30,977 nt of DNA from Bdellovibrionales bacterium (GCA_043739185.1 JAYUEN010000470.1:1-30977), one strand, 5' to 3'; positions 9,601 through 30,977 are shown, numbered from the stretch's first letter. Translations and numbers: made by a program. The notes: generated by a model from the sequence alone, not told the origin.

Positions 9601-9965
9601 AAGTCTTTTATGACAAAGACAAATCTCGCTGGTACGCTTTGAACAATCGAAGTAGCGCAATTAAAATTTTAAAAGAAGGCCCTGATGAAGTAATGCAAAC
9701 TCTAGTGAATTTGCCAAGAGCAATCAGCTCCTTTACTTATGTCTTGAATTCTTCAAGTCAGCCCATGGTATACTACTGTGCAACTGACGGATTGATTTAC
9801 AAATTTAATATTACATTGAAAACTGAAAAGGCGATACCATGGCCAAGCCCGAGCATTGCATGCCAGGGAAACGCACTGCTTTTGAACCCCTCACGCAATA
9901 GCGTAATTTTTCCTTTTAGTCAGAATGCTCTAAATGGAGTTGCCGAAGTGGTCGACACTCCTTAA
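6666..9965 (+). CDS. Large surface or lipoprotein with beta-sandwich-like N-terminal domains and an NHL-like beta-propeller region (adhesin-like)
   Basis: Signal peptide ending LPFQNC. NHL-type motifs GDGGLATSARF, TIAGNG.AG, VLGTGT.G and IYFADRGRIR. Ser/Asn/Gly-rich. Confidence 0.75.
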   Translation: MQIQNYKIKQTAIISIFICVLTLPFQNCSQVDFALNYNTLASLASSGPMLIVNGGRPSNSKIMPVAFQLAALQSQTGAEFTSMRLGLNRNTLDSAPYVPFANPTSIDLQTEYANDGTKDGIKNIYVDIHIKGTEAAMNLIGQLTLDTIAPTTQSLNIENGASSTTMNYTSLQLQAHDTYSNITQVCFKTFAIQPSVKDLCWTPVSQLGANALSPNLDLKKAPFLIGFVQGKYTVYAFLQDEAGNISKLTSAGAGTDKLDRKSIQYNPPIPPVLINIFASNTDHSSFPPKLNQLTNMPGDSIYIKWKVASAPGGLGANPVQLFYTLDEKHYSLIESNLANAANGDCSLDANYSGCYKWTSKIDTDKYFRIRVGVQDKNGQLSFASTLPINTGSFYILAGNTDPGLDGSAASAIFYNANLSQTFYADPQSFVITQFGSIVFRDSQRGLLLIDPYNGIQKLIVPLDVNGGGHFVDGPLGTATLAFNNARIALDYNDRILIMDSSKIRVLDLQSKTLTSFIGNDSRSSGSLASGTLANKFDFSINDSGGSNTVLANPMYPLPNGDLIFKNGSDRSSIGAGASLRIYKASDQRIYTMNPSGAGANYGGSWDPSWDITSSNHTLNNFGIGFDPFNSQLTNIFAGLYMQIVGDNAYYFSSLDPYTFKVLPQNLQMAIPFGFGHNTDQYLSDRVGNTTSFSRWGAKILQFNNSNNSWTTVLGTGTLGQCADGTKALDCNVDLQSVFIGPQNQIYFADRGRIRTIADGKVFSIIGQSYSFGDGGLATSARFGLVDYIDQDKNNNIVVLDSTEARFRSFPAAGAISTIAGNGTAGNPDDSQLAVNQPLLTGYWGGLYSFTIDQNTGDLYFVNYKLNATTGHWQNLYGSATNFANGDGLPAASITANYPWATLGFGGGKLLQASNNWTYDATHPNGWLYDSFYKLYDSTNNYVQSNLAGSHEPSTSGFGADGDPLSNAQVPPQFNQENSKVFYDKDKSRWYALNNRSSAIKILKEGPDEVMQTLVNLPRAISSFTYVLNSSSQPMVYYCATDGLIYKFNITLKTEKAIPWPSPSIACQGNALLLNPSRNSVIFPFSQNALNGVAEVVDTP

Positions 9966-15206: not shown

Positions 15207-16505
15207 ATGAAATTGATTATTCTCGCTGCCTTTGATCTTTTCCTTACTTTCTCCATTTTGCATTTGAACCCTTTTCTTTTTTCAAAACATTTGCTGTGGA
15301 GCCGAGATGAGCTAGGTTCGCGCCCGATTCCTGTTTTTTCCCCTCTTATAAGTGCCCAAGGCCACGTTGCACATTTCATTTACAGAAATTCAAGCTCACG
15401 CCACGGCTTTGAAAAGCTTGCTATCAATTTAAAATTAAAAAAGGCATGGCAAACAGAAGGCCTTAATTTCGGAGCTCATACCGCAAGTAAATCCTCGCCC
15501 GCAATTGATCAAGACGGTATTTTTGTCGGTGGCGACATGAATTCATTTTCGGCCTTTGATTTTCAAGGTCATTTAATTTGGCAATTTCATCTTGAATATA
15601 CCGCGCGTGGAGTACATGGGACCGCCGCACTTGATGAACATTTTGTTTACTTTGGCGCCTACAATGGACGCTTTTACTGCTTAGATAAAAAAACTGGAAG
15701 GGTTCAATGGGTGATACGTCTTGGTGATAGCATTGGCTCCTCCCCCCTACTTTACAAAGATGAACTCTATATCAGTGTTGAGACATTCACTCCACCAAAT
15801 GGCTATGTCGTTAAGCTCAAAGCAAGTGATGGTAGTATGGTCTGGAAATCCCAGCTCCTAGGCGAACAAGCGCATTCATCAGTTGCCTTAGAAGAAGAGA
15901 GCGGCCTCGCTTTTGTAGGGGCCAATAGCAAAAAGCTTTTCGCAATTGATTCAAAGTCCGGCAATTTCATATGGCAAAAAGATGTGGATGGCGAAGTCAA
16001 ATCCACTCCGGCAGTTCACCAACACATCGTATATGTAACCGACCGTGGTGGTTTTTTGTCCGCATTTCAAACCTCAACAGGAAATCTTCTCTGGAAAACT
16101 CATATCTCTAGTGACCTTAAAACAGACAAAGGTTCGCAATCATGCCCCACAATCTTTGAGCGTGAAAAGATGATCGTTACTGCAAGTCTTTCAGGACTTA
16201 TTGTTGGAGTTCGAATGAGTGATGGCAAAATACTTTGGCAAAAACAAAGTAGCCACAATAGTGGTTTGAAGACGAGCGCCACCGGTACTTTGCAGGAAAA
16301 TAGCTCTTCTTCATTGGCCTGGATCGAATGCGATCACTTTGAAATCTGCGCGCTCAACCCAAGAAACGGAAAGGTTTTAACGCGAATTAAAACGGATGCG
16401 CCCATTTCAGGGAGCCTTGAATTTTTCGATGGCGCAATGTATTTTGCAACGGATCCGCAGCTCGAACGGAATTTAGCGGGGACTCTTTTAAAGCTGGAGT
16501 ACTAG
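15207..16505 (+). CDS. PQQ-like (BamB-type repeat) beta-propeller protein
   Basis: Repeated S[ST]P.....vy.G...G..ya.D..TG...W units, e.g. YCLDKKTGRVQW, AIDSKSGNFIW and AFQTSTGNLLW. Hydrophobic N-terminus. Confidence 0.85.
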   Translation: MKLIILAAFDLFLTFSILHLNPFLFSKHLLWSRDELGSRPIPVFSPLISAQGHVAHFIYRNSSSRHGFEKLAINLKLKKAWQTEGLNFGAHTASKSSPAIDQDGIFVGGDMNSFSAFDFQGHLIWQFHLEYTARGVHGTAALDEHFVYFGAYNGRFYCLDKKTGRVQWVIRLGDSIGSSPLLYKDELYISVETFTPPNGYVVKLKASDGSMVWKSQLLGEQAHSSVALEEESGLAFVGANSKKLFAIDSKSGNFIWQKDVDGEVKSTPAVHQHIVYVTDRGGFLSAFQTSTGNLLWKTHISSDLKTDKGSQSCPTIFEREKMIVTASLSGLIVGVRMSDGKILWQKQSSHNSGLKTSATGTLQENSSSSLAWIECDHFEICALNPRNGKVLTRIKTDAPISGSLEFFDGAMYFATDPQLERNLAGTLLKLEY

Positions 16506-16562: not shown

Positions 16563-17774
16563 CTAGTGTGCCGGTTTATGAATGCCACCTGCGACGTCAA
16601 TCCAAGACTTCGATTTGCAAAAATCTCTAATTTCAATGATTTTCTGAAAACTTGCATCACTGGTTCTTTTGGCTGTGAGCCCAAGATCAAGATCTATAAA
16701 ATCAGGACGATTTTTTTCACTTCGGCAGTAAGTTGATGCTTCAGCGAAGATCACCAAAGGATCGCAATTGATTCGTACCCCAAGTTGATTGAGACTTTTT
16801 CGAGGAGCTTCTCTGATTTGCCCATTTTGATACTTTAAAAAAATAAAATCATCACATTGAACATTTGCATCGAGCATATTGAGAGAAAACATCCGTCCCT
16901 CTCCCGTTAAGGCAGAGTCTCCGGAATAAAAAAACGGCGGCAATTGTAGAATAACAAACGCTGCTAAGAAGACCATACTCGGCTTATTGAGACTCAAGAT
17001 ATTCATTTTAATTTCATTGAAGTTCAATTCGAAATTTCTTACAAAAATATAAACTGTAAGCAAACAAGCCATAATAGCTGGATAAAAAATTCCGACAATA
17101 AAATAAGAAAAAAAGTGAAAGCAAAACAGTTGCATAAATGTAAACCAAAAAATGAGGCGCTTTTTAGAAAGCAGCCCCCACACCATTAGCATTTCGAGAA
17201 ATGGGACATAAGCACAGAGCCACTCGAGTAATTTTGCGGAAAGTGCGATCGGCTTTGTGAAACTAACGCTCGATAGCCACTCCACATTGAATTTGAGAAT
17301 GCCAGCAAAGAAATAAAAAAGAGGGATCAGAAAGAACGTGGTGCGAATCTTATCAGGAAAAAACAAATAAGCTATGCTCACCCAAAGTGGCATATAGTGA
17401 TAATTTCCCATGAAACGATAATCTTGAAAAAAAATAAATAATTTAAAAAAAAATAGAAAAAGCAAAAGTGGATACGCATAGGAATTAAAGGCTTTTATAA
17501 GAAAAGCAAGAAAACAAGTCAGAGCAAGAACTCCGTAAATTCCGAGGATTGCATGCACCATCAAGTCCGATGCAAATGTGTATTTATAGCACTGCGAATA
17601 AATTGGCCAGCAGACACGAAAAGGATCGCGCAAATATTTTAAAAGTAAATTCCCATTATTCGTCCAAAACCAAAAACTAAAAACATGGGTAAGCGCCAAA
17701 GCAGAGCCAAAGTATTTTAAACTTCGACTTGCCAATATTTCTTGAATGGAGTTTTGAAGGTAGCGCTCAAGCAT
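16563..17774 (-). CDS. HTTM / vitamin K-dependent gamma-carboxylase-like integral membrane protein
   Basis: Multiple TM segments with NYHYM, YFFAGILK...EWL, FH and GEGRMFSLNM, resembling the HTTM/VKGC motifs N.H.Y, Y..AG..K...W and EG..FSW.MM. Confidence 0.65.
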   Translation of the reverse strand: MLERYLQNSIQEILASRSLKYFGSALALTHVFSFWFWTNNGNLLLKYLRDPFRVCWPIYSQCYKYTFASDLMVHAILGIYGVLALTCFLAFLIKAFNSYAYPLLLFLFFFKLFIFFQDYRFMGNYHYMPLWVSIAYLFFPDKIRTTFFLIPLFYFFAGILKFNVEWLSSVSFTKPIALSAKLLEWLCAYVPFLEMLMVWGLLSKKRLIFWFTFMQLFCFHFFSYFIVGIFYPAIMACLLTVYIFVRNFELNFNEIKMNILSLNKPSMVFLAAFVILQLPPFFYSGDSALTGEGRMFSLNMLDANVQCDDFIFLKYQNGQIREAPRKSLNQLGVRINCDPLVIFAEASTYCRSEKNRPDFIDLDLGLTAKRTSDASFQKIIEIRDFCKSKSWIDVAGGIHKPAH

Positions 17775-17955: not shown

Positions 17956-18714
17956 GTGAGAATTCAGACCATTACGATTGATAATTTTTATCCTGACCCC
18001 ATGCGAGTTCGCGAATTTGCGCTATCGGTTGGTTGGCACCAACCATATCAGAAGGACAACGGGAATATTAAAACTAATACTGCTCAAAAAGCTGATAAGA
18101 CCTGGTTGACCACAAATAAAGTCGATATAGCGCCGACGATTTTCCATTCTGACAAAATGATTTCTGTACTTGAATCAGTCACGGGCGACGATATCGACCG
18201 GCAAGCCTGGAAAGAAAGACCAACCCGTTGGAATGGATTATTTCATGTAAAAACCCATGACCAATTCGAATCCTGTCTTGATAGTGACTATAATCCACAC
18301 CAACACGCAGGTATCCACTCTCATACAATTGACAACTCCAATTCAACGGGCGCCGATGGTTGGGCAGGCATCATTTATCTAAATCCCAATGCTGCCCCAG
18401 CAGCTGGACTTACCACTTGGCGCCCCAAAACTGTCGTTGAAGATAGCTTCTGGACAATCCATTTTACCCACGAAAACTTTGAAAAAATTGATACAATTGG
18501 CAACACATTTAACCGATTGATTCTGGCACGCGGGGATATTTGGCATTCGGGCGCAGCGGGTTGGGGTGATTCACTGAGTACTGGTCGAATGTTTCAAACA
18601 TTTTTCTTTCGTAGTCTGGGGCCCTCCAAAGTCAAAAAAGATTTCAAACTCACGTCTGACGATTTACCACAGCCTAAAAAACCAGAGTTGTCAGTAGTCT
18701 CCAAAAGCATTTGA
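17956..18714 (+). CDS. Fe(II)/2-oxoglutarate-dependent oxygenase-like protein (DUF6445-like)
   Basis: IDNFYPDP..VR.FAL, WAGIIYLNP, FNRLIL.RG..WHS and GR..QTFF. Strong GAGGAGGT RBS before the GTG. Confidence 0.8.
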   Translation: MRIQTITIDNFYPDPMRVREFALSVGWHQPYQKDNGNIKTNTAQKADKTWLTTNKVDIAPTIFHSDKMISVLESVTGDDIDRQAWKERPTRWNGLFHVKTHDQFESCLDSDYNPHQHAGIHSHTIDNSNSTGADGWAGIIYLNPNAAPAAGLTTWRPKTVVEDSFWTIHFTHENFEKIDTIGNTFNRLILARGDIWHSGAAGWGDSLSTGRMFQTFFFRSLGPSKVKKDFKLTSDDLPQPKKPELSVVSKSI

Positions 18715-18797
18715 TTCGGTTCTAGGAAGTGTACGCCCCCCGCGATTGTCTCAAAATGATTAGTGCCTCATTATAGCGCCTCGTTTTGAGAAGTTGC

Positions 18798-18825
18798 TTT
18801 AGAATGAAAACTTTCTGTCCGATGA
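18798..18825 (+). promoter_or_regulatory. Putative sigma-28-type promoter for the tandem-domain FQNC protein
   Basis: TTTAG-N15-TCCGATGA. Shares TTTAGAAT-N12-TCCGAT with the site at 2044-2071. Confidence 0.45.
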
Positions 18826-18892
18826 GTATCTGTTCTATTTAGATACTTTTTGAAATGAATTCCGAAAGCAAAGAATTCGAAGGGGAATAATT

Positions 18893-19705
18893 GTGCGTTT
18901 GGTAAAAGATCTCTTGTTGAAGTTAAAAAGCAATCATACAAAAAAAATAGCAGCCGCAAGAATTGGAGCGATTTTATTGATAAATTTCGCAATTTATCTA
19001 TCAATTGTGGTCTTTCAAAACTGCGCAGACTCCGGTGGATCTTCTCCAGTGAACCAGTCTAAGACGGCATCGGCGGTAACAGAACCGGCGCCCTCATGTA
19101 AATTAGTTTTTTATGACACGAAAACTGGGATAAACGGATCAAATATTGATGCAAACGTAGGAGATTCTGTTGGAATGTATATCACCTGGTCCAATGTAGC
19201 AGCCAATGCAAGTCAAAATTGGGCTGCAGCCACAGCAACATATAACTGCACAATTGGCACTCCAGGTACTTTTGATCCATCAGACTTGGCAACAAATTAT
19301 CAACTTCCTCCTGATCCTGCCACCGTTTCAAATAGCTGTACAGTAACAGTCACAAATAGCGGCGGATCAAATACTTGCAGTGGGTCGGTAATCGTCCATA
19401 CTCCAGCACCGACTTGTACCGTTGTTTGGAGTGATACGACCAAATCTACTTCAGGAAGCAATCTTACAGTAAGTAAATCCGATAATGTCGGTTTAACAAT
19501 TTCATTTATGAATCTTTCAGGAAGTAATGGCGCCCAAGCAAGTTATTCGTGTACGCTGGGAGGAAGCGGCAACTTCACCCCTGCTCAATTTGCTAATCCG
19601 TATGTTCTTCCACCAATTCCCGCAGTTTCGAGTAATAGCTGTACAGTCACCGTTACGAATTCCGGAGGAAGCAATATTTGTTCTGGTGCTCTGACGGTGC
19701 AATAA
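18893..19705 (+). CDS. FQNC-signal exported protein with two tandem ~100-aa four-Cys beta domains
   Basis: VFQNC signal. Internal duplication PAP.C...SNSCTVTVTNSGGSN.CSG at 19085-19399 and 19403-19702. Start codon uncertain. Confidence 0.8.
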   Translation: MRLVKDLLLKLKSNHTKKIAAARIGAILLINFAIYLSIVVFQNCADSGGSSPVNQSKTASAVTEPAPSCKLVFYDTKTGINGSNIDANVGDSVGMYITWSNVAANASQNWAAATATYNCTIGTPGTFDPSDLATNYQLPPDPATVSNSCTVTVTNSGGSNTCSGSVIVHTPAPTCTVVWSDTTKSTSGSNLTVSKSDNVGLTISFMNLSGSNGAQASYSCTLGGSGNFTPAQFANPYVLPPIPAVSSNSCTVTVTNSGGSNICSGALTVQ

Positions 19706-19918
19706 TCTGTGATCTCAACGGTCTTCGGCGGCAAGACTATTGCCAAGGGTTCAATTATTAATTGATTGGCAGTATTTCTTACAACCAGACTCAATTTATA
19801 AGTTTGAACGAGCTTGCAGGAAAAACCAAGGAACTTCAGCTTTTACCTGCTTCTCAAGCATTGTTCTCGACCAATTCTGGACTACAACACTGGGTACCAA
19901 ATCAAATAGTCTAAAGAG

Positions 19919-21202
19919 ATGGATCCCACAAGAAAAGACCGCTTTCCCCCATCTGAAATTTCATGGGCGGCAATTGAATTTGAACGTCTTCCCAATCCCC
20001 TTTGGGCAAAAACATTTATTTATTTAACTGCTTTTATTGTGTGTATCGGAATCGGATTTAGTCTCGTTGCAAAGGTACCTCTAACCGCCGAAGGAAATGG
20101 TCGTATGACGAGCATACAAGCTCCCGTACCGATTCGCGCGGCTGCTAAAATGACTGTTTCAGAGTTGAAAGTTTATGAAAATAAAGTTGTCACAAAAGGC
20201 GAAGTGCTTATTGAATCGATGGAGAGCCTCTCGCCACAGGATGTAGGGCTTCTCAAACGCTACGTGAGTGAGCTTTCAGGAATCGACAAGTGGGATCTGA
20301 TTCGATGTGGTCAAAAGTGTATCTCAAGACTCAAAGACCAAGCGCGTGCATACCAATCTCTGCATCTGCAAGGTGAAGCCATGAACTTTGCAACCCCGGT
20401 ACAAGATCACTTAAGAGAAATTTTACTTGGTTTACAAGAACGTTTGGAGTTAGCAAATCTGACCGCAGATATGCGAGCCCAAATTGCGATGGACAATCAA
20501 AAAATTGCTCAAATTAAAAGTCGACAGGCCGAAGTTATATTGGCAAAGGAATTTGAAGCCCTCAATGTCGATTTGGTACAAAACCAAACACGTATCAAAG
20601 AACGTTATCAGAAATCCAACGAGCGCATTAGCAGTGCTCAAGAACAAGTGATTTCTTATCTCACGGACTTAGAAAATAAAATTCGTTATTTCACCTCTCA
20701 GTTTGTAATTAAAGCCCCCTTTAGTGGAACGGTATCTAATCTGAGTGTTAAGGGAAAAGGCGAAGTGCTTACTCCAGGGCAAGATTTAATGGTCATCGTA
20801 CCAAAGGACTCAGAACTCATTGCCGAACTTGAAGTAGAAAATCGCGACATCTCAGATGTGCAACCTGGCCAGACCGCCGACCTCGTCATTGATTCCCTGC
20901 CAGAATATGAATATGGTACGGTCAAAGGAGTCGTGCTCGAGTTTACCCGAAAAGAGAAAGACTCTTCTGTTATTCGAAACTTGGCTTCAATTGAAGCTCC
21001 TGTTTTCGTCGCTCGAATAAAACTTTCTAGTCAATCCTTAACAAAAGATGGAGTTGTTTCGCCGTTCATCTTTGGGATGACATTACACGGCCACGTCACG
21101 ATTCGGACTGAGTCTATCTTTAACGTTGTTATGAGAGCGCTCTTCAGACTTAAAGAAGGTTTGCGCCAGCCCAAGCAAAAGATAGGCAAAAATAAAAAAT
21201 GA
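19919..21202 (+). CDS. HlyD-family membrane fusion (periplasmic adaptor) protein
   Basis: N-terminal TM, V.E...V.KGEVL, coiled coil, IKAPFSGTV, GQ.LM.IVP and N.DI..V..GQ...EYG.V.G. ATGA overlap with the next gene. Confidence 0.92.
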   Translation: MDPTRKDRFPPSEISWAAIEFERLPNPLWAKTFIYLTAFIVCIGIGFSLVAKVPLTAEGNGRMTSIQAPVPIRAAAKMTVSELKVYENKVVTKGEVLIESMESLSPQDVGLLKRYVSELSGIDKWDLIRCGQKCISRLKDQARAYQSLHLQGEAMNFATPVQDHLREILLGLQERLELANLTADMRAQIAMDNQKIAQIKSRQAEVILAKEFEALNVDLVQNQTRIKERYQKSNERISSAQEQVISYLTDLENKIRYFTSQFVIKAPFSGTVSNLSVKGKGEVLTPGQDLMVIVPKDSELIAELEVENRDISDVQPGQTADLVIDSLPEYEYGTVKGVVLEFTRKEKDSSVIRNLASIEAPVFVARIKLSSQSLTKDGVVSPFIFGMTLHGHVTIRTESIFNVVMRALFRLKEGLRQPKQKIGKNKK

Positions 21203-24200
21203 CTTCTACAGCCTACGCCAAAACGGTGTTATCGGAAATGAGTAGTCACTCCATTTTCAGGTTTTTTCCTGAAGTTTTAGATGCGTTTCTCAAGCATGGC
21301 GTTGTGCAAAGTGTGAACCTTCGCAAGCGTATTTGCGTCGTGAACACACCTATTAAACATCTTATCATTCCGATTGATGGGAAATTGCGTCTGGTTCTCC
21401 CAACTGGTCGTCCTGGTGATGAAAGATTTCTTGCAGTCCTTGATCCCCTCCTACCCCTTTGCTGGCGAGACCATCTTCAAAACAATCCGTATTGCCTCTC
21501 TGCTATAACAGAGGAGAATTGCAATATTCTCTTTGTTCCGAGCAATATAGTCAATAAAGTATCACCCTTACGATCCCCGACCGAAAATGCTATCCAGTTA
21601 TTGATATCCTCCTCTGCCTTAAGAAATTTTATAGAATCCGGAGATGCCAAATTTAAATGTGGAGTAAAAATAGCAAACTGTCTTAAGACCATAGACGCTC
21701 CAGCAATTAGACTGCGAAATATTGAGGAAGTGAATTTCAGTGGAAATCTACTTCACTTTATTGAAGATGGTTGGGTTGTTTTTGAAGGCCAGCTGCAAAC
21801 AGGTCAAACTATTCATCGGGTGTTACGTGCAGGCGACTGGTTTGGAGAACCTTGCTTTCAGAAACTATTCACAAGGCCTCCTAAATTAACTTTTTCAAAA
21901 GAAATGACGATTCGGCAGTTTGCGCAATCGAAGTTAAAATCAGCTTTTCCCAATGGAGAGGTTCCGTGGGAAGCCATCGCTCCAGCCTGGTTAGAAGAAG
22001 CAAAGAGGTCGGCGGAATCCAGCTTCAAGACCTCCCCTCGAAAACGGACAAGACTTACCGACCTAACAATGATAGAGTTGGGATACAAGACTGATCCCAA
22101 GAAAATAGTTTACGCTAACAATAGTAGCGAATGGCCAGAAATGGCGGTCCGCAACTTGGCTATCCTTAATGCTGTTGACCTCAACCTGTCGAATCTTAAA
22201 ATATTCTTTGATGCCAATGAAAGACTGTCTCTTGGATCTTTCGCAGAAGTTTTAGAGCGTCATGGCTTTATTACAAGAGCCCTTCGTTGTGAGCCGTCTC
22301 GCCTCAAGAGACAAAAAATGCCCTTGTTGGCCTTTTGTAATTCACGTCCATATGTGATTCTTAAGGTGAGCGGGCGACAGGTTTATCTTCTTGATCCCGA
22401 GAAAGGAATTGTCGGTGTCCACCTTAAAGAATTCTCTCAGGCTTGGAATGGGCAAGCTCTCGAAGCGCAGCGCTCACCGCTTGAACCAATCTTAGAGGAC
22501 GCCATTACCAGACACTTTCTGGACGATTTTCGCCGGATAACGGCGGCGCTGATCTCTGCCATCTACGGCAAAGACTCTTCTGGTATTTACCGCAATATGT
22601 TTATCTTGGGTTTGGTTGCAGCACTCCTCGAAGGAACTATTCCACTATGCATGGAATATATTGTAGGAGACATTCTCACTTCGAAGAATCTGCAATCACT
22701 TCAAACCATATGTATTGGTATAATTTTGATTGTCTTTTTTTCGACTGTCTGCGAGGTCATCAGTAAACTCCTATCCGAAATGAAACTCCAAAGACTCCAG
22801 TTCGATACACAGTCCTATATGATTCGCCAGTATCTGCAAACTCCTCCAAAAATCCAAGGAGAGAGCCGCTCTTATGATATGATTGCGAAATTGGATTTGA
22901 TGCAGCACTTAAACGAAACTTTTCACAATCCAAGAATTGAAATTTATTTATTGGGTACCGTTTGTTTCCTATATTTTCTGGTCATCGCAGCAATGCGACT
23001 AGATGTGGCCATTGTTTTAGCGATAGGATCCCTCGCAATGGGAAATTTAAAACGCTTCTATGTTGATCAGAACCTTCATGAACTGCCGGGCACAACTGAT
23101 CTCCGTCAAAGTGCAAAAATTAAGCTGGGTGAACAGATTGAATCAACTCACGTTATCAAAAGTGTGCGCGGAGAGGTCATAGCGGCAAAGAACACTGAAT
23201 TTTATTCATTAGGCGTAACTCGTCTTTATCTGAAACTTGCCAATAAACTCAACAATGGATGGGGTGCCACCGGAATCATCACCGCCGTAGTTTATTCTAT
23301 ATCGGTATATCTGATGATTGGTGGAGGAGGATTCACAAAAGGCAAACTAGAACCAGGTGTCTTCTTGGCGGTCATGCTTTTTCTGGGCATCTTTAATCGA
23401 AAATTTACGGGTCTGACAACTGCTTACGGAGAATATCAGTTCTTCAAACTTGAATCTATTAGTTACGGTTACTATGCCCGCCCCAATCAAGAGTATTCGT
23501 TGCCTACCATTAGAAACACACGAGCCATTGCCCTCAAAGGTGATATCCGATTTGTCAACGTAGGCTTTCAGTATTCGGGGACAAATAATTTTTGTTTGAA
23601 AGAAATTTCATTTTCAATTCAACCAGGCAAAACCATCGCAATTGTTGGACAAAGTGGTGCGGGTAAATCGACCTTAGTGCAGATGATCGCAGGGCAACTA
23701 AGACCTCAGTCTGGTAGCATCGTATATGATGAAGTAGACTCAAGGCTCTTATCATTACAGTCGATTCGAGATCAAATCGGAATAGTTGAGCAGGAGCCGA
23801 AATTATTTGCTGATACTTTTATTGCCAATATCGCATACGGAGATGATGCTCCAGATATAAAACGCGTCGAGGCTGCAGCTCGAGCTAGCGGCGCAAACTT
23901 GTTCATTGAATCATTACCTGGTGGCTACCATTTTTTCTTGCACAATAATGGCCGAGATTTATCTGCAGGTATGAGAACCCAAATTTCTATTGCCAGGGCA
24001 ATTTATAAAAACCCGCGTATTTTAATCATCGACGAGGCGGGTGCACATCTTGACCCTATTTCTTTTAAAAGCATGTGCGACAATGTCACAGAGCTAATGG
24101 AAGACAGGACTGTAATCTTTGTGACTCAGCGTCTGCAAACCCTACAAAAAGTCGATTACGTATACGTTCTTAAAAATGGTTTTATCATTGAATCTGGCAC

Positions 24201-24270
24201 TCACAATGAACTGATTCGTAATCATAGAGAATATATTGAACTATTCCGAGCGCAAGTTAGCACTTACTGA
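21199..24270 (+). CDS. Peptidase-domain-containing type I secretion ABC transporter A (2x cNMP-like, C39-like, TMD, NBD)
   Basis: cNMP-like L.FI.DG.V...LRAGDWFGE, C39-like P.LAF....YVILKV....VYLLDP..G....W.G, Walker A GQSGAGKST and Walker B LIIDE. Confidence 0.88.
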   Translation: MTSTAYAKTVLSEMSSHSIFRFFPEVLDAFLKHGVVQSVNLRKRICVVNTPIKHLIIPIDGKLRLVLPTGRPGDERFLAVLDPLLPLCWRDHLQNNPYCLSAITEENCNILFVPSNIVNKVSPLRSPTENAIQLLISSSALRNFIESGDAKFKCGVKIANCLKTIDAPAIRLRNIEEVNFSGNLLHFIEDGWVVFEGQLQTGQTIHRVLRAGDWFGEPCFQKLFTRPPKLTFSKEMTIRQFAQSKLKSAFPNGEVPWEAIAPAWLEEAKRSAESSFKTSPRKRTRLTDLTMIELGYKTDPKKIVYANNSSEWPEMAVRNLAILNAVDLNLSNLKIFFDANERLSLGSFAEVLERHGFITRALRCEPSRLKRQKMPLLAFCNSRPYVILKVSGRQVYLLDPEKGIVGVHLKEFSQAWNGQALEAQRSPLEPILEDAITRHFLDDFRRITAALISAIYGKDSSGIYRNMFILGLVAALLEGTIPLCMEYIVGDILTSKNLQSLQTICIGIILIVFFSTVCEVISKLLSEMKLQRLQFDTQSYMIRQYLQTPPKIQGESRSYDMIAKLDLMQHLNETFHNPRIEIYLLGTVCFLYFLVIAAMRLDVAIVLAIGSLAMGNLKRFYVDQNLHELPGTTDLRQSAKIKLGEQIESTHVIKSVRGEVIAAKNTEFYSLGVTRLYLKLANKLNNGWGATGIITAVVYSISVYLMIGGGGFTKGKLEPGVFLAVMLFLGIFNRKFTGLTTAYGEYQFFKLESISYGYYARPNQEYSLPTIRNTRAIALKGDIRFVNVGFQYSGTNNFCLKEISFSIQPGKTIAIVGQSGAGKSTLVQMIAGQLRPQSGSIVYDEVDSRLLSLQSIRDQIGIVEQEPKLFADTFIANIAYGDDAPDIKRVEAAARASGANLFIESLPGGYHFFLHNNGRDLSAGMRTQISIARAIYKNPRILIIDEAGAHLDPISFKSMCDNVTELMEDRTVIFVTQRLQTLQKVDYVYVLKNGFIIESGTHNELIRNHREYIELFRAQVSTY

Positions 24271-24276
24271 GGAAGA

Positions 24277-27200
24277 ATGAACGACGAAAAACTGAAATCA
24301 TCAATATTAGCTCTCGTTCCTCCCTCGGCCCGAGAAAAATTGTATGCTGATTGCAAAGAATACAACATTGTCAAATCGGATTGGTTAAAATTGACTGAAC
24401 CACCAACCGACCTTGCATTTGTATTGAATGGAGAAATTGCACTAAGAAATAAAACGGGCAATATGATGGAATATGGCCGGGTTGTAAGTGGTAGATCAAT
24501 TGAATTGAAAGCATTTTTTCTAAAATCACCTACTTGGGATTGGGCATGGCAAGCTCAAGAAGACTCAAAAGTCTTTGTGGTTCCTTGGAAGTCATTTGTC
24601 GAGGCCTTTGCTTCAGCGCCTCAAACTCTTAACTACCTTCACAGGATGGCTATCAATCCAGAATTGCAAAAGCTCAAGAGAGATTTGCGATCTCTTGGGA
24701 CCGCCCATCAAAGTGTCGAAACTATAATTAATAGCTTAAAGCATGGTTCATTTTCTGAAGCCAAATCTCGCTGTGTAAATGAACGTCTCTTTTTTGTTGT
24801 ATCCAGCGGCCGTATGGAGTTGAATTTTGCCTTGGATGGCACTTTTCGCCCAATGGGAAGTTTTCAGTTGGGCGAAACTTTAATATACGATCCCAAACAA
24901 AAAAATTATTTTTATGAAGTTATTGAGGATGTTAAGGGCTGGTATATTTTTGAAAGTGAATGGAAGAAACTGAAATGCCAAAAAGATCTAGAGGATTTTT
25001 TTGAAATTCGTTATGGTCTAATTGAAGAGTCAAAGGATGCGCTTTCAGATCAAACTACCGGCGAAATGGAAATTTATCAGGGGCAATCGAAACTCAAACG
25101 CAGAGTCACAATTTTTCACCGACTACATTATTTTTTTTCATCTAGAAAAATCGTAACTCACTCTGAATTTTCTAATGCGGCACCTGCATGTTTAGCATCT
25201 GCTGCGGCTCAGTTTGGCTATAAAATTGGAGTGAAGGCAATTAAGTTTCACTTCACAGGTTCGCACGAAAGTGGAGTTTTGAACTCCATTGCCCGGGTGG
25301 CACATAGCATTTCTTTTACCTCAAAAAAATATACCATCAATCCTGAGCTCAACTTCAAAGCAAATTATCCGACTATAATAGACTATGGTTCAAAACCCCT
25401 GCTGCTATTTTCAATATTAGATCATCATGCTGAGGTAGGAGATACTCAAACAGGTGCCATTAACTTCATAGCGGTTCATAGACTCACAAGACGATGGAAC
25501 GGAAGAGTCTTAGAAATTTTTCCGACTGCAAAATCGTGCAATCTTTCTGACTCGAGAGTAGAAATCTTTAAGTACTTCTCGCTTTTGAAAGGCAATCTTC
25601 ATGCCTGTTTTCTTATTTTTCTAGCGAGCTCCCTTTCTTTTCTTTTTAGTTTAACAATTCCCATGTTCAATCAATTCGTCTTTGAACGTATGGCAGAAGA
25701 TGAAGATTGGTCCTTGGGAGCGGTGGTAACTATAGGTTATTTTGCGAGCAGCCTTATTGCGGCAATACTGACTTGGGCTTCTCGCATGATCGTGAGCCAA
25801 TTCAACTTCACAATGGACGCCAAATTTACCAGTGCATTTGTACAGCAGCTCGTTCGTTTGCCCGTAGGCTTCTTTGATAGCGTTGGTAAAGGTGAGCTCT
25901 TCAACCATCAAATATTACTCAAAGAAGTCCAGGTTTTTGTCACTCAGCAAATCGTCGCGATCGCTATGCAATTGACTTGTGTGACAACAGCTTCATTTGT
26001 TCTTTATCTGTATCATCCTAAGTTACTATGGACCGTGTCGCTCTTCATTATTCCTCTTATTTTACCGATCGGAATCTTAACTCCGACTTTGATTCGCCTG
26101 AGAACATCAATGGCCCAGCATGAATCTACAGGTAAACGTATCTTAATGGAAATCTGTGATTGGTATGAAACAGTGAAATTGAACAACTCATTTCGCGCAG
26201 AACGTTGGCGATGGGAAGCCAACTTTCTAGACCGATCCGCACTTGCTATCAAAGCACAAAGATTCAGTACTATCGTCACTGGAGTCAATGCCTTTACTCG
26301 CGAAGCGATGAAAATCGCAGTTTTGTATGAGGCAGTCCAACTCAGTTTCAGTAATAATCTCAGTGTCGGCAAAGTAGTTGCTGCAATTTTTTGTGTCGAG
26401 CTTCTCACCCCTGCTCTAGTTGGTTTGTTAGAGGTATTTGATACCTTCCCTAAATTCCTTGCTGGTCTGGCTCAAGTGGATCCGATATTCAGCAAACGCC
26501 CTGAGGCTATTGATTTGCCAACAGACAAGAAAATGGTACGCGAGGCCCGCGGAAAAATTAGATTTGAAAATGTTGATTTTCGTTACAGCCCGACTTCCCC
26601 CAATATTCTAACAAAAGTGAATCTTGAAATTGCTGCTGGCGAAAAAGTTGCGATTGTAGGTATGAGCGGTTCGGGCAAGTCGACTTTGGTAAGCCTGTTC
26701 AACGGATTGCGAAAACCAAGTTCTGGCAATATCTTTATAGACGATATAAGTATAAAAAAAATGTCACTAGCCACTCGAAGAAAAATTGTCGGAATGATTC
26801 CTCAGGGAAGCCGACTCTTTTCGGGAAGTTTAATTGACAATATTTCGATGTTTGATCCTCAGGTCTCATTCGAACGCGTTGCTGCGGCTGCCTACCACGC
26901 CGATGCCGAACAATTTATCACCCGCCTTCCTCAAGGTTACTCATCTATGATTGCTGCTGGCGGTACCGGCCTATCAGTTGGGCAGGCACAAAGAATTTTA
27001 ATTGCTCGCATGATCTATGAAGATTTCAAAGTTTTTATTCTCGATGAGTCCACCAGCCACCTCGACCCCATTTCGGAAGAAAGATTGCTCAGTCGATTTT
27101 TAAAAAGTATTGGAAGTCGAACTCTCATATTTGTCTCACAACACGTTAATCTATTGTCGACGACCGACAAAATCATTTTTGTCCACAATGGGACAGTTGC

Positions 27201-27285
27201 CGAAATCGGCCGCCATGAAGAATTATTGCATAAACGCGGACTTTACTATGAGTTTTTGTCACGCCAACAGAGCGTTGCACTCTAA
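24277..27285 (+). CDS. Peptidase-domain-containing type I secretion ABC transporter B (2x cNMP-like, C39-like, TMD, NBD)
   Basis: cNMP-like LAFVLNGEI and FVVSSGRM, C39-like AAPACLA...WNGRVL, RLPVGFF, Walker A GMSGSGKST and Walker B FILDESTSHLD. Confidence 0.88.
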   Translation: MNDEKLKSSILALVPPSAREKLYADCKEYNIVKSDWLKLTEPPTDLAFVLNGEIALRNKTGNMMEYGRVVSGRSIELKAFFLKSPTWDWAWQAQEDSKVFVVPWKSFVEAFASAPQTLNYLHRMAINPELQKLKRDLRSLGTAHQSVETIINSLKHGSFSEAKSRCVNERLFFVVSSGRMELNFALDGTFRPMGSFQLGETLIYDPKQKNYFYEVIEDVKGWYIFESEWKKLKCQKDLEDFFEIRYGLIEESKDALSDQTTGEMEIYQGQSKLKRRVTIFHRLHYFFSSRKIVTHSEFSNAAPACLASAAAQFGYKIGVKAIKFHFTGSHESGVLNSIARVAHSISFTSKKYTINPELNFKANYPTIIDYGSKPLLLFSILDHHAEVGDTQTGAINFIAVHRLTRRWNGRVLEIFPTAKSCNLSDSRVEIFKYFSLLKGNLHACFLIFLASSLSFLFSLTIPMFNQFVFERMAEDEDWSLGAVVTIGYFASSLIAAILTWASRMIVSQFNFTMDAKFTSAFVQQLVRLPVGFFDSVGKGELFNHQILLKEVQVFVTQQIVAIAMQLTCVTTASFVLYLYHPKLLWTVSLFIIPLILPIGILTPTLIRLRTSMAQHESTGKRILMEICDWYETVKLNNSFRAERWRWEANFLDRSALAIKAQRFSTIVTGVNAFTREAMKIAVLYEAVQLSFSNNLSVGKVVAAIFCVELLTPALVGLLEVFDTFPKFLAGLAQVDPIFSKRPEAIDLPTDKKMVREARGKIRFENVDFRYSPTSPNILTKVNLEIAAGEKVAIVGMSGSGKSTLVSLFNGLRKPSSGNIFIDDISIKKMSLATRRKIVGMIPQGSRLFSGSLIDNISMFDPQVSFERVAAAAYHADAEQFITRLPQGYSSMIAAGGTGLSVGQAQRILIARMIYEDFKVFILDESTSHLDPISEERLLSRFLKSIGSRTLIFVSQHVNLLSTTDKIIFVHNGTVAEIGRHEELLHKRGLYYEFLSRQQSVAL

Positions 27286-27408
27286 CTCATTAATAAATTT
27301 ATAGATTTTAGGCATTTAACTTTACACTCCCTAAAACCAGCTTCTGGACTTGAGAAATCTCCATATTCTGACGAAACCTGAGCTATCGATATCTTAAGGA
27401 GGGAACGC

Positions 27409-28176
27409 GTGCTCCACACCATCAATGATCAGCCTTTTTACAAGTTCGAAGACCAACTTGATTTTGATCTGCTTCACCAAGAGGCAGCAGATCTTTTAAT
27501 TTATGCTAGGGACAAGTTCGACTTTGGCACCCCATCTGGAGCCGTCACACGCGGCTCGGATGGTATCAATCAGCTCGATGATGTGAACAAGGAATTGACG
27601 GCTCGCGACCAGGAACGGATGAAAGGAATGACCGCAGGCCAAAGGGCGGCTTACCTGAAAATCGTCAAACAAACCTACTTCCCATGGTTCGTTTATCCTC
27701 TGAACGAACGTCGTGATTGGAACCTACGCGGACAAAAACGAGATTCCTGGCTTCCTCACGTAGAAAAGTATATGCCCAATTTTATCAAAGCTGTCGAAAG
27801 CCTGAAGATGTTCAAACATGTTGGTTGGGCTCGACTCTATGCCAACGAAGCCTTTAATGGCGTACAAGTTCATTTTGATGGGCACTTAAATCCGGCAAAT
27901 AAAAAGTTGTCTTTTGATAATTTTGTTTTTTTTAACCTTAACGCAAAACCACTTTTTCTTTATGATAAGGATCAACACAAAAAGATTTACATGAAAGAAA
28001 AACTCTTTTATTTTGATGCCGCCAACTATCATGGTACGGATGCGCAACCTTTCTTCAATTATTCGATTCGTATCGATGGTGAATTCACCGACGATTTCTC
28101 GAAATCTTTGAAGCTAAGCCGCAATGAGATTACGAAGCATACCCTGAAACAACTGCCAGCCGATAGGGCGGCCTAA
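27409..28176 (+). CDS. Fe(II)/2OG oxygenase-like protein (DSBH fold, Asp/Pro-hydroxylase-like motif layout)
   Basis: HxD (VHFD), distal His (FD..NYHG) and downstream Arg (SIRIDG). AAGGAGG RBS before the GTG. Confidence 0.65.
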   Translation: MLHTINDQPFYKFEDQLDFDLLHQEAADLLIYARDKFDFGTPSGAVTRGSDGINQLDDVNKELTARDQERMKGMTAGQRAAYLKIVKQTYFPWFVYPLNERRDWNLRGQKRDSWLPHVEKYMPNFIKAVESLKMFKHVGWARLYANEAFNGVQVHFDGHLNPANKKLSFDNFVFFNLNAKPLFLYDKDQHKKIYMKEKLFYFDAANYHGTDAQPFFNYSIRIDGEFTDDFSKSLKLSRNEITKHTLKQLPADRAA

Positions 28177-28194
28177 CACAATATTTTATCGATA

Positions 28195-28725
28195 TCAGAT
28201 TTGGTAAGCCGCTGAAATACGCGAGGCCAAAGTTGGGCTTAAAATTTTTCTCGCTGGCTTCAAGTATTCTTTAAAGGCATCTCTATCTTGCCCTATTGTG
28301 CGAGGCCGCAGCTCAATAATATTTGCAAAATTCAAGACAATGAGATCCCTAAATTGCTCAGATGTGACCGGCATTCTTCGATTGTCTTGAAAACTTTCAA
28401 CATAATATTCTCCATCATTCTGAAGCTGGCTGAACAATGAAACTCGCGCATGAACGCAAAATAAAAAAACCAAGGCCTCTGCCCGCTCGCCCACTACGGA
28501 CCTAACCCAGTCGCGCTCTTGCAAAGAAACAATCTCGTGTCGAAACGCGACGGTTCCGTAAATACTGTGAAGTAAACCGGCGACACATACGGCTTCTTCT
28601 TCTTCCCAACTTTTTAAAACCTGGTATACCCCAAGAAGATGTTGATCAAAACTTTGACTTAAATGAGCAATTGAGCTGAAACCATATGCAGAAAATTGAC
28701 TGAGAATATGTACAGGATCCTGCAT
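28195..28725 (-). CDS. DUF6817-like HD-fold protein
   Basis: H....F..HL.GVY..L..W......C.AGL.HSIYGT and R..VR..VG..AE.LV..FC. Confidence 0.75.
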   Translation of the reverse strand: MQDPVHILSQFSAYGFSSIAHLSQSFDQHLLGVYQVLKSWEEEEAVCVAGLLHSIYGTVAFRHEIVSLQERDWVRSVVGERAEALVFLFCVHARVSLFSQLQNDGEYYVESFQDNRRMPVTSEQFRDLIVLNFANIIELRPRTIGQDRDAFKEYLKPARKILSPTLASRISAAYQI

Positions 28726-28746
28726 TTAACACTTCACCTTTTTCTC

Positions 28747-30210
28747 TCAACGATTGACCGTAGCTGAACTTTTAAGTTTTTCAGCTACCCGACTTTTTGA
28801 TTTTTCTAACTGTGCAATCTCAAGTCGAGCTATTAATGACTTTTCCCAGGCGCTTCGTGCGACATTCAAGGCTTCTAAATACGTCCTATATGCTTGAGTC
28901 GTAACTGTCAGGTCAATCAATCCAATTTTCAATTGCACCCTAATAACCTCAATTAATTTTTTGGAATCAATAATAGTTTTTTTAGCCACTTCAATGCTTT
29001 CAGCAGCATGAGCCATCGTACGGTATAGCAATTTCAAATCACGGTTAAAATCAAGTATGGTTTGAAGCTCCATCTCATCAAGTAAATGACTTCTTTCAGC
29101 AGCTGATCTGATTTCTAAGTTCTTATTTTCTCCGGCAAAATTATATGAAAAACGAAATCCGATAATTCCTTGGCCACGATTGTAATTTGATGGGTTATCA
29201 GAATAAAACCCTAAACCCAAATAAGGAACTAGACTCCATTTCATTTCCTTACGCAAGAGTTCGATATTTTTCTTTTGGGCCTCCTTACGAAATTCAAAAG
29301 ATTGAATCGCCGGCAAGGATCGAACGAATTCGTCATTTATTCGATTGGGATCATTTTTTTCTAATTTTATTTCTAAGGGGTCCTGGCATTTGGCCTTTTG
29401 CCGAAGCAGACTCCTTGCGACCCAAATAGCCTTTGTCCCTACGTCAGAAAAACGGGCTTCAACATCACCTTGATCCTCAATATATTCCTGGCGCTGCTGT
29501 TCTAATTGATTCTGAACATTTTTTAACAGCAAATAATCTGGCAAAGACATGCTCTTTGACTGCAACTTGACTTCGGCTGCATGAAGAATTTCGGCCAAAA
29601 TAATACCAACCGCATCTAAATCTTGCAGACGGCAAAGCAAATTAAAATATTGAACGATATACACCTGCTTTTTCTGAATTTCTGAAAGATAATTTGATTC
29701 GGCGTCAAAATAGCTTGATCGCGCTTCACTTCTTTCGATGTCAGCACGTATGTTGAGCGGACTTCGTGAACCACCTTTCGATATGTCTTTTCCAATCGTG
29801 AACTGCCCCTGAATTGGAACAACGGAAGTGTCACTAGGCGCAATTGGCTGAAAAAAACTCGTTTCAGATTTGAATTCCAATCCATTGCGATTTAAAAAGG
29901 TCACGTTAATCATTCCGGGAATCGATTTCGCCATCGCGCGATCTGTGCTTGCGTAGGTATTGATATCTGTGTTCAGAGTCCAAGGACTTTCGTAAAGGGT
30001 AGATTGGTACCGCAAATCATTGTATCGACCCGAGCTCTGCAAAACTTCTTTTCTTTCGCCCGCTTCGATTTCAATTGAAATCTTTTTTTGAAATTCGTCA
30101 AAACTCATTGCATCTTGCGCGAATGAAGTGTGGGACGCAAAAACCAATGAGCACGAAATCAAAACTAAATCGAAAATTTTATTTTTCGCTAAGGATTGAG
30201 CAGCGTTCAT
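28747..30210 (-). CDS. TolC-family outer membrane efflux protein (divergent)
   Basis: Signal peptide ending SFA, about 490 aa. Two-fold alternation of beta strands and long helices, including PYLGLG, GFRFSYNF and a C-terminal ..KIG.ID. Adjacent to the HlyD/ABC operon. ATG at 30210 follows GGGG; the ORF track starts at 30249. Confidence 0.7.
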   Translation of the reverse strand: MNAAQSLAKNKIFDLVLISCSLVFASHTSFAQDAMSFDEFQKKISIEIEAGERKEVLQSSGRYNDLRYQSTLYESPWTLNTDINTYASTDRAMAKSIPGMINVTFLNRNGLEFKSETSFFQPIAPSDTSVVPIQGQFTIGKDISKGGSRSPLNIRADIERSEARSSYFDAESNYLSEIQKKQVYIVQYFNLLCRLQDLDAVGIILAEILHAAEVKLQSKSMSLPDYLLLKNVQNQLEQQRQEYIEDQGDVEARFSDVGTKAIWVARSLLRQKAKCQDPLEIKLEKNDPNRINDEFVRSLPAIQSFEFRKEAQKKNIELLRKEMKWSLVPYLGLGFYSDNPSNYNRGQGIIGFRFSYNFAGENKNLEIRSAAERSHLLDEMELQTILDFNRDLKLLYRTMAHAAESIEVAKKTIIDSKKLIEVIRVQLKIGLIDLTVTTQAYRTYLEALNVARSAWEKSLIARLEIAQLEKSKSRVAEKLKSSATVNR

Positions 30211-30702
30211 TTTTGCTACCCCAGATTTGTAAAATAAAATGCCGTGCACATTTCGCTTAACACTGCCCTTGATCGCACTTTAATAACGAGAAGTACCTCA
30301 GTAACTACACCACCAGAAAAGAACTGAGACAAGTCCAGTAGAACACTGAACTATTTTTCGGACCGACGCTAGTTAAAGTCTTAATCCAGTAAGTAAATGA
30401 ATATGTTTAAGCTTATAGTTATCGCCCAAAGTACCTAGAGTGAAAGCGAAATCTCTATTCAAGTCGCTTTGTAACACAAGTAAGATTGCAGTCTCCTACT
30501 GAGTAAGGCATGCGATCACTTGTGAATTCTTAATCGGCCGTCCAAACTCAACTGAGTTGTATATGTGATGCATGTTCACGTTCAGTCGAGCCGGTTCAAC
30601 GAAGGCTAAGCCAGAGGCTCCATCCGTAAGAGAACCAGCCAAAACTGGCAAAAAAACAACTAGACACACTCTTTTCTAATAGAAAGTATCTCGCCAACTT
30701 TC

Positions 30703-30733
30703 GCCCCTCTCCATTATCTGAAAGGAGAGAGGC
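30703..30733 (-). terminator. GC-rich stem-loop just downstream of the Pro-rich ORF (terminator or mRNA-stabilising hairpin)
   Basis: Minus strand GCCTCTCTCC-N11-GGAGAGGGGC forms a 10-bp stem with one G.U pair that pairs only on the minus strand. No clear U-tract. Confidence 0.55.
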
Positions 30734-30740
30734 TCGAGAC

Positions 30741-30977
30741 TTATTCTGGCCCTGGATCTGGCCCTGGATCTGGAGACGGATCCGGAGCCGGAGACGGATC
30801 CGGAGCCGGCGATGGATCCGGAGCCGGAGCCGGCGATGGATCCGCGGGACTTGGTGACGGGCTCGGCGATGGATCCGCGGGACTTGGCGACGGGCTCGGC
30901 GATGGATCCGCAGGACTTGGTGACGGGCTCGGCGATGGATCCGCGGGACTTGGCGACGGGCTCGGCGATGGATCCGC
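30741..30977 (-). CDS. 3' end of a Pro/Ser/Asp-rich repeat protein (partial; start lies beyond the window; absent from the ORF track)
   Basis: Manual translation gives (ADPSPSPSPSP)4-ADPSPAPAP-DPSPAP-DPSPAP-DPSP-DPGP-DPGP-E-stop, with TAA at 30743-30741. Differences among the 33-bp units are synonymous, and a hairpin follows the stop. Confidence 0.8.
   Translation of the reverse strand, partial: ADPSPSPSPSPADPSPSPSPSPADPSPSPSPSPADPSPSPSPSPADPSPAPAPDPSPAPDPSPAPDPSPDPGPDPGPE
30835..30977. repeat. 33-bp coding tandem repeat, at least 4.3 copies, continuing off the window
   Basis: GATGGATCCGC[GA]GGACTTGG[TC]GACGGGCTCGGC starting at 30835, 30868, 30901, 30934 and (partial) 30967. Confidence 0.95.

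Follow-up and report, generated by a model that had tools for sequence, protein, structure and literature searches.

What is modified and exported at the right-hand end of a 30,977-nucleotide contig of a Bdellovibrionales bacterium (GCA_043739185.1 JAYUEN010000470.1:1-30977)? The window analysed here is this entire contig, C470, and between positions 17,956 and 30,977 it carries a twin ATP-binding cassette (ABC) exporter, Fe(II)/2-oxoglutarate-dependent (Fe/2OG) oxygenases, a DUF6817 protein and part of a Ser-Pro repeat protein, from which an earlier note had proposed a modify-and-export system for an extensin-like substrate. That idea is partly supported overall. Our best reading of the gene content is that the window covers one half, for export and tailoring, of a single cluster of the RiPP (ribosomally synthesised peptide that is modified after translation) type, which would span ~22 kb or more over contigs C316, C35 and C470, and we assign a probability of roughly 0.6 to the repeat protein being the substrate of this one azole-type cluster, with tailoring of its Asp residues. 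A RiPP-type cluster is preferred to an extensin analogue because an azole synthetase is encoded on the adjoining contigs. What is established is gene content, family membership, residue conservation and contig adjacency by sequence, in one genome. Gene calls and Pfam/NCBIfam models confirmed the annotated genes of the window at the following positions.

17956-18714, plus strand: DUF6445-family Fe/2OG-type oxygenase, oxy1 (Pfam, Atlas); cluster membership uncertain
18893-19705, plus strand: lipoprotein with FQNC lipobox-like motif; paralogue on contig C297; probably a bystander
19919-21202, plus strand: HlyD-type membrane fusion protein (Pfam/NCBIfam); closest relatives 53% and 46% identical
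21199-24270, plus strand: ABC exporter 1 (ABC1); cNMP (cyclic nucleotide monophosphate)-like N-terminal region, C39-like domain, membrane domain, nucleotide-binding domain (NBD)
24277-27285, plus strand: ABC exporter 2 (ABC2); layout as ABC1
27409-28176, plus strand: Fe/2OG oxygenase, oxy2 (fold and conserved residues; no Pfam model)
28195-28725, minus strand: DUF6817, SmaX-like HD-type Fe enzyme (88 bits, cut-off 25.2)
28747-30210, minus strand: TolC-like outer-membrane efflux protein (42.6 bits, cut-off 22); ATG start, in-frame GTG at 30249
30741-30977, minus strand: repeat protein, C-terminal 78 codons (stop 30741-30743; N-terminal 241 codons on C35, L001:6881-7605)
30831-30977, no strand: 33-bp tandem repeat, 4.5 copies, 95% match; the assembly breaks here

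The azole synthetase is reached through two contig joins. Beyond position 30977 the repeat reading frame continues on C35, where its leader was found; the 33-bp unit occurs on just these two contig ends and on no other contig, and the join is in frame with a 29-nt overlap. At the other end of C35, the last 21 codons align gap-free to residues 8-24 of the YcaO protein of another genome, G604, and this end is the best of 1080 contig ends against that protein (score 24, next 7). C316 opens at residue 26 of the same protein, and two spare bases fit Tyr25. In addition, contigs from sequencing runs X1 and X2, both of which may be the source sample, extend 4357 nt beyond the YcaO end of C35. Besides the start of the precursor gene and the gene of a third oxygenase (oxy3), C35 carries a packed divergent operon comprising a short-chain dehydrogenase/reductase (SDR)/epimerase, a metallo-beta-lactamase (MBL)-fold hydrolase, two SdpAB-like pairs and a C-like gene of the thiazole/oxazole-modified microcin (TOMM) type, with the YcaO gene starting on the stop codon of the preceding gene and running off the contig. 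The remainder of YcaO lies on C316, together with another C-like gene and a gene for a SagB dehydrogenase. The earlier note's remark that no classic RiPP synthetase is visible is therefore true of the window, but the YcaO/SagB/C-protein set lies next door.

The YcaO split over C35 and C316 is of the SagD type (TIGR03604, 242.7 bits, cut-off 219.25) and ends in PxPxP, which has been described as typical of azoline-forming YcaOs (10.1101/2025.07.11.664356). SagB is recognised by TIGR03605 (93.9 bits, cut-off 78.4), and the C-like proteins share conserved Cys motifs with homologues beside other YcaOs and have an N-terminus resembling a RiPP recognition element (RRE). Judged by its genes, the locus is a TOMM-type cluster by the definition in PMC4603692. 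The SdpAB-like pairs, each a small protein plus an HTTM protein, match TIGR04033 at E 2e-6 and 3e-4, far below its cut-off. Five other YcaO-like genes of the genome (C455, C99, C203, C42 and C27; L003-L007) were set aside as weak or short, divergent matches; most lie beside histidine kinases or solute-binding-like proteins, the stretches read contain neither C nor B proteins, and the genes may form a non-TOMM group of YcaOs in this lineage.

With a length of 310 aa or more, the candidate precursor contains 132 Pro (43%), 67 Ser, 38 Ala and 65 Ser-Pro pairs. A polar leader of 28 residues is followed by (Ala/Ser/Thr-Pro)n and (Ala-Asp-Pro-Ser-Pro...)n repeats, a core with 67 Ser, 9 Thr, 1 Cys and 14 Asp. 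An AGGA resembling a ribosome site precedes the start codon, and the oxy3 gene ends 42 nt before that codon on the shared strand. The leader has no signal peptide (best 9-residue hydropathy 1.16) and no double Gly, and the absence of a Sec signal rules out that the repeats are merely the tail of an unrelated Sec-exported protein. In a scan of family models the protein matched no precursor family, and no RTX-type Gly/Asp repeats were seen in it. A predicted complex between leader residues 1-35 and the C35 C-like protein scored 0.00, which speaks neither for nor against binding, and alignment of the small open reading frames (ORFs) of five loci revealed no common leader motif. Within the precursor gene (L001:6975-7170), strain differences appear in runs X3 and X4, including a 6-nt insertion in the Ala-Pro repeats in X3 at low depth, hinting that repeat length varies.

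The Asp residues of this core are of interest in view of SmaX, a DUF6817 enzyme: in a RiPP precursor the Fe/2OG enzyme SmaO forms beta-hydroxy-Asp, which SmaX cleaves to aminomalonate (PMC12186529). Pairs of SmaO-SmaX type are present in 43 clusters from known RiPP classes, of which the data table gives one as azoline-type, and DUF6817 clusters with YhhC/CinX-type partners have precursors without Asp-Gly or Gly-Asp (DG/GD) motifs (PMC12186529). SmaX binds Fe through His39, His63 and Asn143 and its substrate through His31, Thr68, Arg104 and Gln147 (PMC12186529). Six of these seven key residues are kept in the window protein as H21, H29, H53, T58, R94 and N135. The first five match SmaX H31, H39, H63, T68 and R104, from which they are offset by a constant -10; N135, invariant in 5/5 aligned DUF6817 proteins, was paired with Asn143 by visual comparison with the construct given in the supplement of PMC12186529. 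The protein thus shares with SmaX the three Fe ligands, three of four substrate residues and a position beside Fe/2OG and HlyD/ABC genes. It differs in facing Asp-Pro rather than Asp-Gly, at 14 sites or more rather than 2, in a precursor without a double-Gly leader; in carrying Leu for Gln147; and in that its likely partner, oxy3, is not adjacent (PMC12186529). Oxy3 belongs to PF13640 and resembles YhhC, both by sequence model (E 3e-8, 33.5 bits, below the cut-off of 150) and by structure, a YhhC cluster being its neighbour in the Atlas (row 2, template-modelling (TM) scores 0.61/0.85). The window enzyme is probably a SmaX-like candidate working with a YhhC-like partner.

Neither oxygenase of the window can be given a substrate so readily. 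Oxy1 is a DUF6445 protein (24.6 bits, cut-off 24; the Atlas agrees) with conserved distal His197 and Arg211, in which H-S-H replaces the proximal H-x-D motif. For oxy2, an alignment of 103 rows, drawn from 150 listed of 205 matches, yields a confident Fe/2OG beta-helix (predicted local distance difference test (pLDDT) 88.8 with 102 relatives; 37 from the single sequence), and H155-x-D157, H208 and R221 are conserved in the 103 aligned relatives. In the fold search, PHD2-type prolyl, free-proline and Asp/Asn hydroxylases tie at Z 10.9-11.4, a Chlamydomonas prolyl 4-hydroxylase is among the matches, and an unrelated hydroxylase scores Z 13.6; because the classes tie, the substrate is not assignable. 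Weak matches to Asp_Arg_Hydrox of Pfam are found for 3/103 relatives. By sequence oxy2 has no match in the PDB, and a word-indexed search with oxy2 and the DUF6817 protein returned just the query. Of the hydroxylation of Pro and/or Asp proposed earlier, the Asp branch is strengthened by the SmaX family, but no oxygenase is assignable to Pro.

The exporter itself is largely as the earlier note had described it. HlyD and the two ABC genes form a tight operon (HlyD/ABC1 overlap of 4 nt, ABC1/ABC2 gap of 6 nt), and the gene set for one-step type I secretion, comprising ABC exporters, membrane fusion protein and TolC-like channel, is complete by family models. Both Fe/2OG genes said to bracket the exporter hold up, but the bracket is loose, with the lipoprotein gene between oxy1 and HlyD. 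Similarly, the genes of the supposed convergent unit of repeat ORF, TolC and DUF6817 are present, but ~530 nt part the first two, which may therefore not share a transcript. This interval (30211-30740) has no convincing ORF and no Rfam match, and may hold a separate promoter; promoter and terminator scans stayed at chance level.

C39-like domains are present in the ABC pair, as had been noted, but in that of ABC2 the catalytic Cys has given way to Ala, and ABC1 showed no C39 Cys motif. The NBDs retain intact Walker A and B motifs, with signatures LSAGM (ABC1) and LSVGQ (ABC2). The cNMP-like domains score 33.3 and 22.5 bits with PF00027 (cut-off 27.5); in ABC1 the Gly-Glu pair of the nucleotide-binding cassette is missing, with C-W-R aligned to F-G-E of the nearest solved cNMP protein, and the domain of ABC2 was read by eye. 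Such a domain is no evidence of the cyclic-nucleotide control suggested earlier, because the cNMP domain of HetC bound ppGpp, not cAMP, in vitro (PMC10986499), and this part of the proposal is left unsupported.

The exporter is found in 17/390 genomes of the class, its own included, by a profile made from the ABC1 N-termini of 5 sequences, which match by construction. The names of HlyD relatives place the lineage probably within Bdellovibrionota. Neighbourhoods were compared in the 16 other class genomes and in genome G183, many of them ending at contig edges. G033 combines HlyD-ABC-ABC and a TolC homologue convergent on it with an SdpAB-like pair and an Ala/Gly/Ser/Lys ORF of 145 aa, and its exporter has lost the C39 Cys. 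Among the loci compared, the HTTM gene of G033 matches the HTTM of the cluster best (E 2e-15), and no YcaO was found in this genome, which is 74% complete. In G183 (C20, L017:16134-19934), a twin exporter with intact C39 Cys accompanies a double-Gly precursor and an FlmC-like Fe/2OG oxygenase. In G339 (C90; L039:6635-18538, L040:1540-3585), a twin exporter with C39 Cys accompanies a double-Gly precursor and several oxygenases, one of them DUF6445-like. The C39 Cys is thus retained beside double-Gly precursors (G183, G339) and lost where a small ORF has no canonical double-Gly leader (the present cluster, G033), and the exporter family seems to swap cargo and to lose or keep its peptidase accordingly. 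Of two metagenome scans for relatives, the first found none and the second one locus, L061, where an 89-aa ORF with a Pro-rich tail directly precedes an HlyD 54% identical to that of the window; two strong contig matches proved to be loci already counted, and a third match, of 63 aa, was weak. In G445, a Pro-rich frame that lies upstream of HlyD was discarded, as it has no ribosome site and overlaps the HlyD start. With regard to the co-occurrence expected by the earlier note, related exporters do stand beside small low-complexity ORFs and oxygenases in some genomes, but the full set recurs in none of the genomes searched.

In the favoured reading, oxy3 and the precursor are co-transcribed, the repeat protein is made in the cytoplasm, and its leader would probably engage the RRE-like domains of the C-like proteins. 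If the repeat protein is indeed the substrate, YcaO and the two C-like proteins would probably cyclise some of its Ser/Thr residues to oxazolines, which SagB would oxidise to oxazoles; on the same premise and with similar likelihood, oxy3 would beta-hydroxylate Asp and the SmaX-like enzyme would cleave the product to aminomalonate. Hydroxylation of Pro by oxy1 or oxy2 is, still on this premise, a more tentative step, to which we would give somewhat less than even odds. The product would exit in one step through ABC1/ABC2, HlyD and TolC, with no C39 cleavage, since the peptidase Cys and the double-Gly leader are both absent. The SdpAB-like pairs, the MBL hydrolase and the SDR may process the product further. 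Carried to its end, this scheme would give a secreted, uncleaved polymer with an alternating proline-oxazole backbone formed from dozens of Pro-Ser units, aminomalonate from the Asp-Pro units for strong binding of Ca or other metals, and some hydroxylated Pro, serving as a stiff surface fibre, a metal chelator or a mineral-binding coat and not as a small antibiotic; as a whole, this picture is speculative and rather unlikely to be right in full.

Several observations weigh against this favoured reading. At the level of the enzymes and their substrate, SmaO itself requires Asp-Gly (PMC12186529), and no Asp-Gly site exists in the repeat protein, where 14/14 core Asp precede Pro. Leu139 occupies the position of Gln147, a residue that SmaX needs for activity (PMC12186529); this position, four residues past the conserved Asn, is not constant in other DUF6817 proteins. 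The two C-like genes that flank YcaO match TIGR03882/TIGR03603 at E 3e-6 and 1e-7, below the cut-offs, and the YcaO operon is divergent from the precursor gene and ~5.7 kb distant. Pro-rich stretches are frequent in this genome (44 frames), although most of the protein-like ones begin with signal or lipoprotein leaders. The H-loop His of ABC proteins matters for ATP hydrolysis. It is replaced by Gln in both ABC1 and ABC2, which also have non-canonical signatures, and their ATPase activity may for these reasons be low. Among the pieces listed (32 of 105), no read or contig bridges the repeat between C35 and C470, and for lack of a bridging contig the length of the repeat protein is a minimum. 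YcaO and DUF6817 are both absent from the neighbourhoods read around the 17 other exporters, many of them truncated at contig ends, and no second genome among those searched has the full gene set. DUF6817 is present in 3/390 class genomes, with solitary copies in G290 and G402. A close YcaO is likewise present in 3/390; the other two genomes are outside the 17 with the exporter and have different, Gly/Ser/Cys-rich candidate precursors. Oxy3 was found in 1/141 genomes, and HTTM genes occur in 17/20 genomes tested, so that their presence alone means little.

The explanation that best survives beside the favoured one, although we consider it unlikely, is that the repeat protein undergoes only hydroxylation of Pro and/or Asp, with Asp perhaps taken on to aminomalonate, and after secretion forms a surface polymer that is extensin-like or binds metal, with the YcaO operon serving another, unseen precursor. 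The gene order would suit it, as oxy3 shares a strand with the precursor at a gap of 42 nt and the YcaO operon points away, and the exporters of G183 and L061 adjoin Pro-rich small ORFs without any YcaO. However, a search for another azole precursor under one filter gave 5 weak candidates genome-wide and 0 in the cluster or its gaps, and the 67 Ser and 9 core Thr of the repeat protein are the only dense source of cyclisable residues in the locus. The peptidyl and free-proline hydroxylases among the oxy2 fold matches, the Chlamydomonas enzyme included, could be taken to favour modification of Pro, but they tie with Asp/Asn hydroxylases and others. Furthermore, no glycosyltransferase family match exists among the 22 window and 9 C35 proteins.

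Less probable still is that the genes are chance neighbours. The exporter would then be an ordinary, lineage-typical twin-ABC type I system for a large acidic or adhesin-like protein, next to which a solitary DUF6817, unrelated oxygenases and one of the genome's 44 Pro-rich frames happen to stand. The exporter or TolC does lie among housekeeping genes or large proteins (1100-1770 aa), with no modifying enzymes seen, in seven g55 genomes as well as in G506 and G447, and DUF6817 is solitary in G290 and G402. Nevertheless, the present locus has no large cargo gene. DUF6817 occurs once in the genome and in only 3/390 genomes of the class, one SagD-type YcaO exceeds the cut-off, and there is a single copy each of TolC, HlyD, both ABC N-termini and the three oxygenases, all within ~25 kb; G033 has five elements in the same arrangement. 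A decaying cluster or an inactive exporter, the product of which, if made, would stay in the cell, is very improbable, for although Gln at both H-loops, altered signatures, the lost C39 Cys and Leu for Gln147 would fit it, the reading frames are all intact and tightly packed, Walker A and B are kept, the residue four after the conserved Asn is variable in other DUF6817 proteins as well, and loss of the C39 Cys is common to relatives.

Compared with known systems, the locus as read in the favoured way exhibits similarities to TOMMs and linear peptides that contain azol(in)es (LAPs), namely a SagD-type YcaO with PxPxP, SagB, RRE-like C proteins and a Ser/Thr-rich candidate core after a short leader, but there are also clear differences. 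The precursor, at 310 aa or more and 43% Pro with one Cys, is longer and more Pro-rich than usual TOMM precursors, and its Ser alternates with Pro rather than standing in Gly/Cys runs. Two C-like proteins, three Fe/2OG oxygenases and two SdpAB-like pairs are present here, and no active C39 peptidase. The NHLP/Nif11 cassette (TIGR03794/03796/03797; PMC2887384) also has HlyD and two ABC exporters in one operon with RiPP enzymes near, but the window proteins score 240-279 bits against cut-offs of 709-853, and they differ in having cNMP-like and C39-like domains on both ABCs, no catalytic Cys and no NHLP/Nif11 precursor. HetC-type exporters share the order of cNMP-like domain, C39, membrane domain and NBD, but HetC, as described in PMC10986499, is an active peptidase with no neighbouring HlyD. 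SdpA and SdpB of Bacillus subtilis, which are required for precursor processing, likewise combine a small protein with an HTTM membrane protein next to a secreted precursor (PMC6818787); in the present locus the match is weak, two pairs occur, and the substrate is no hydrophobic toxin precursor exported by Sec.

The hydroxyproline-rich glycoproteins of plants and algae contain long Ser-Pro and Ala-Pro repeats, as does the repeat protein, which differs in having no signal peptide, no glycosyltransferase in its cluster and no oxygenase established as a prolyl 4-hydroxylase. The enzyme types are known ones, and as far as our searches showed, it is the protein-sized Ser-Pro/Asp-Pro precursor that is unlike the azole-peptide precursors described in the literature searched. 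This literature, the coverage of which left out most subscription papers, described neither the cluster nor any RiPP precursor with Ser-Pro repeats from bacteria. The unusual features are a precursor of protein size, the number of tailoring enzymes that surround it and a twin exporter whose protease is dead; the exporter family occurs in a lineage little studied for peptide products. If the candidate core of ~280 residues of Ser-Pro, Ala-Pro and Asp-Pro repeats is modified, YcaO, Asp hydroxylase and SmaX-type enzymes would act processively on a polyproline-like chain. Aminomalonate formation would then have its first Asp-Pro substrate, a prolyl hydroxylase of bacterial RiPPs might also be gained, and the boundary between RiPP and structural biopolymer would blur.

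Some of the loci compared are of interest in their own right. In G183 the precursor repeats (Ser-Met-Pro-Pro-Cys-Pro-Asn-Val)n and is accompanied by two proteins without NCBIfam match (420 and 509 aa), and in G339 it is Lys-rich with a Gly/Arg/Pro core beside several uncharacterised enzymes; each is a separate candidate RiPP cluster. Two YcaO loci, read by eye, are a YcaO/SagB/C cluster on contig C1 of G426 (L059:9304-14248), the likely precursor of which is Gly/Ser/Cys-rich and fused to an apparent Hint domain, and a YcaO cluster on C121 of G604 (L058:3939-8552), which includes an ORF of 78 aa with a Gly/Ser/Cys tail, a TRAP-like binding protein and a hydroxylase-like gene. In four genomes of genus g55 a conserved small acidic ORF (115-139 aa) lies by the twin exporter, at the positions below; G566 has, in addition, a TolC-like gene and a 1769-aa acidic protein.

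L041:17608-17955, g55 small acidic ORF
L043:15880-16227, g55 small acidic ORF
L045:17093-17464, g55 small acidic ORF
L050:11421-11840, g55 small acidic ORF

To the left of oxy1 in the window, a PQQ/BamB-like propeller gene (15207-16505, plus strand) adjoins a gene for a 403-aa VKGC/HTTM-like membrane protein without Pfam match (16563-17774, minus strand). Both were excluded as cluster members, since similar genes lie on at least three other contigs; the pair recurs on C180, C500 and C471, and it is found twice near a YcaO cluster in G426 (34% identity). Finally, a pilin-like protein with an N-methyl motif and a 30-copy Pro-Thr repeat is encoded at 5198-6367 (plus strand), and around it lie a 1099-aa lipoprotein gene without Pfam match (6666-9965) and two more pilin-like genes (3805-5167).

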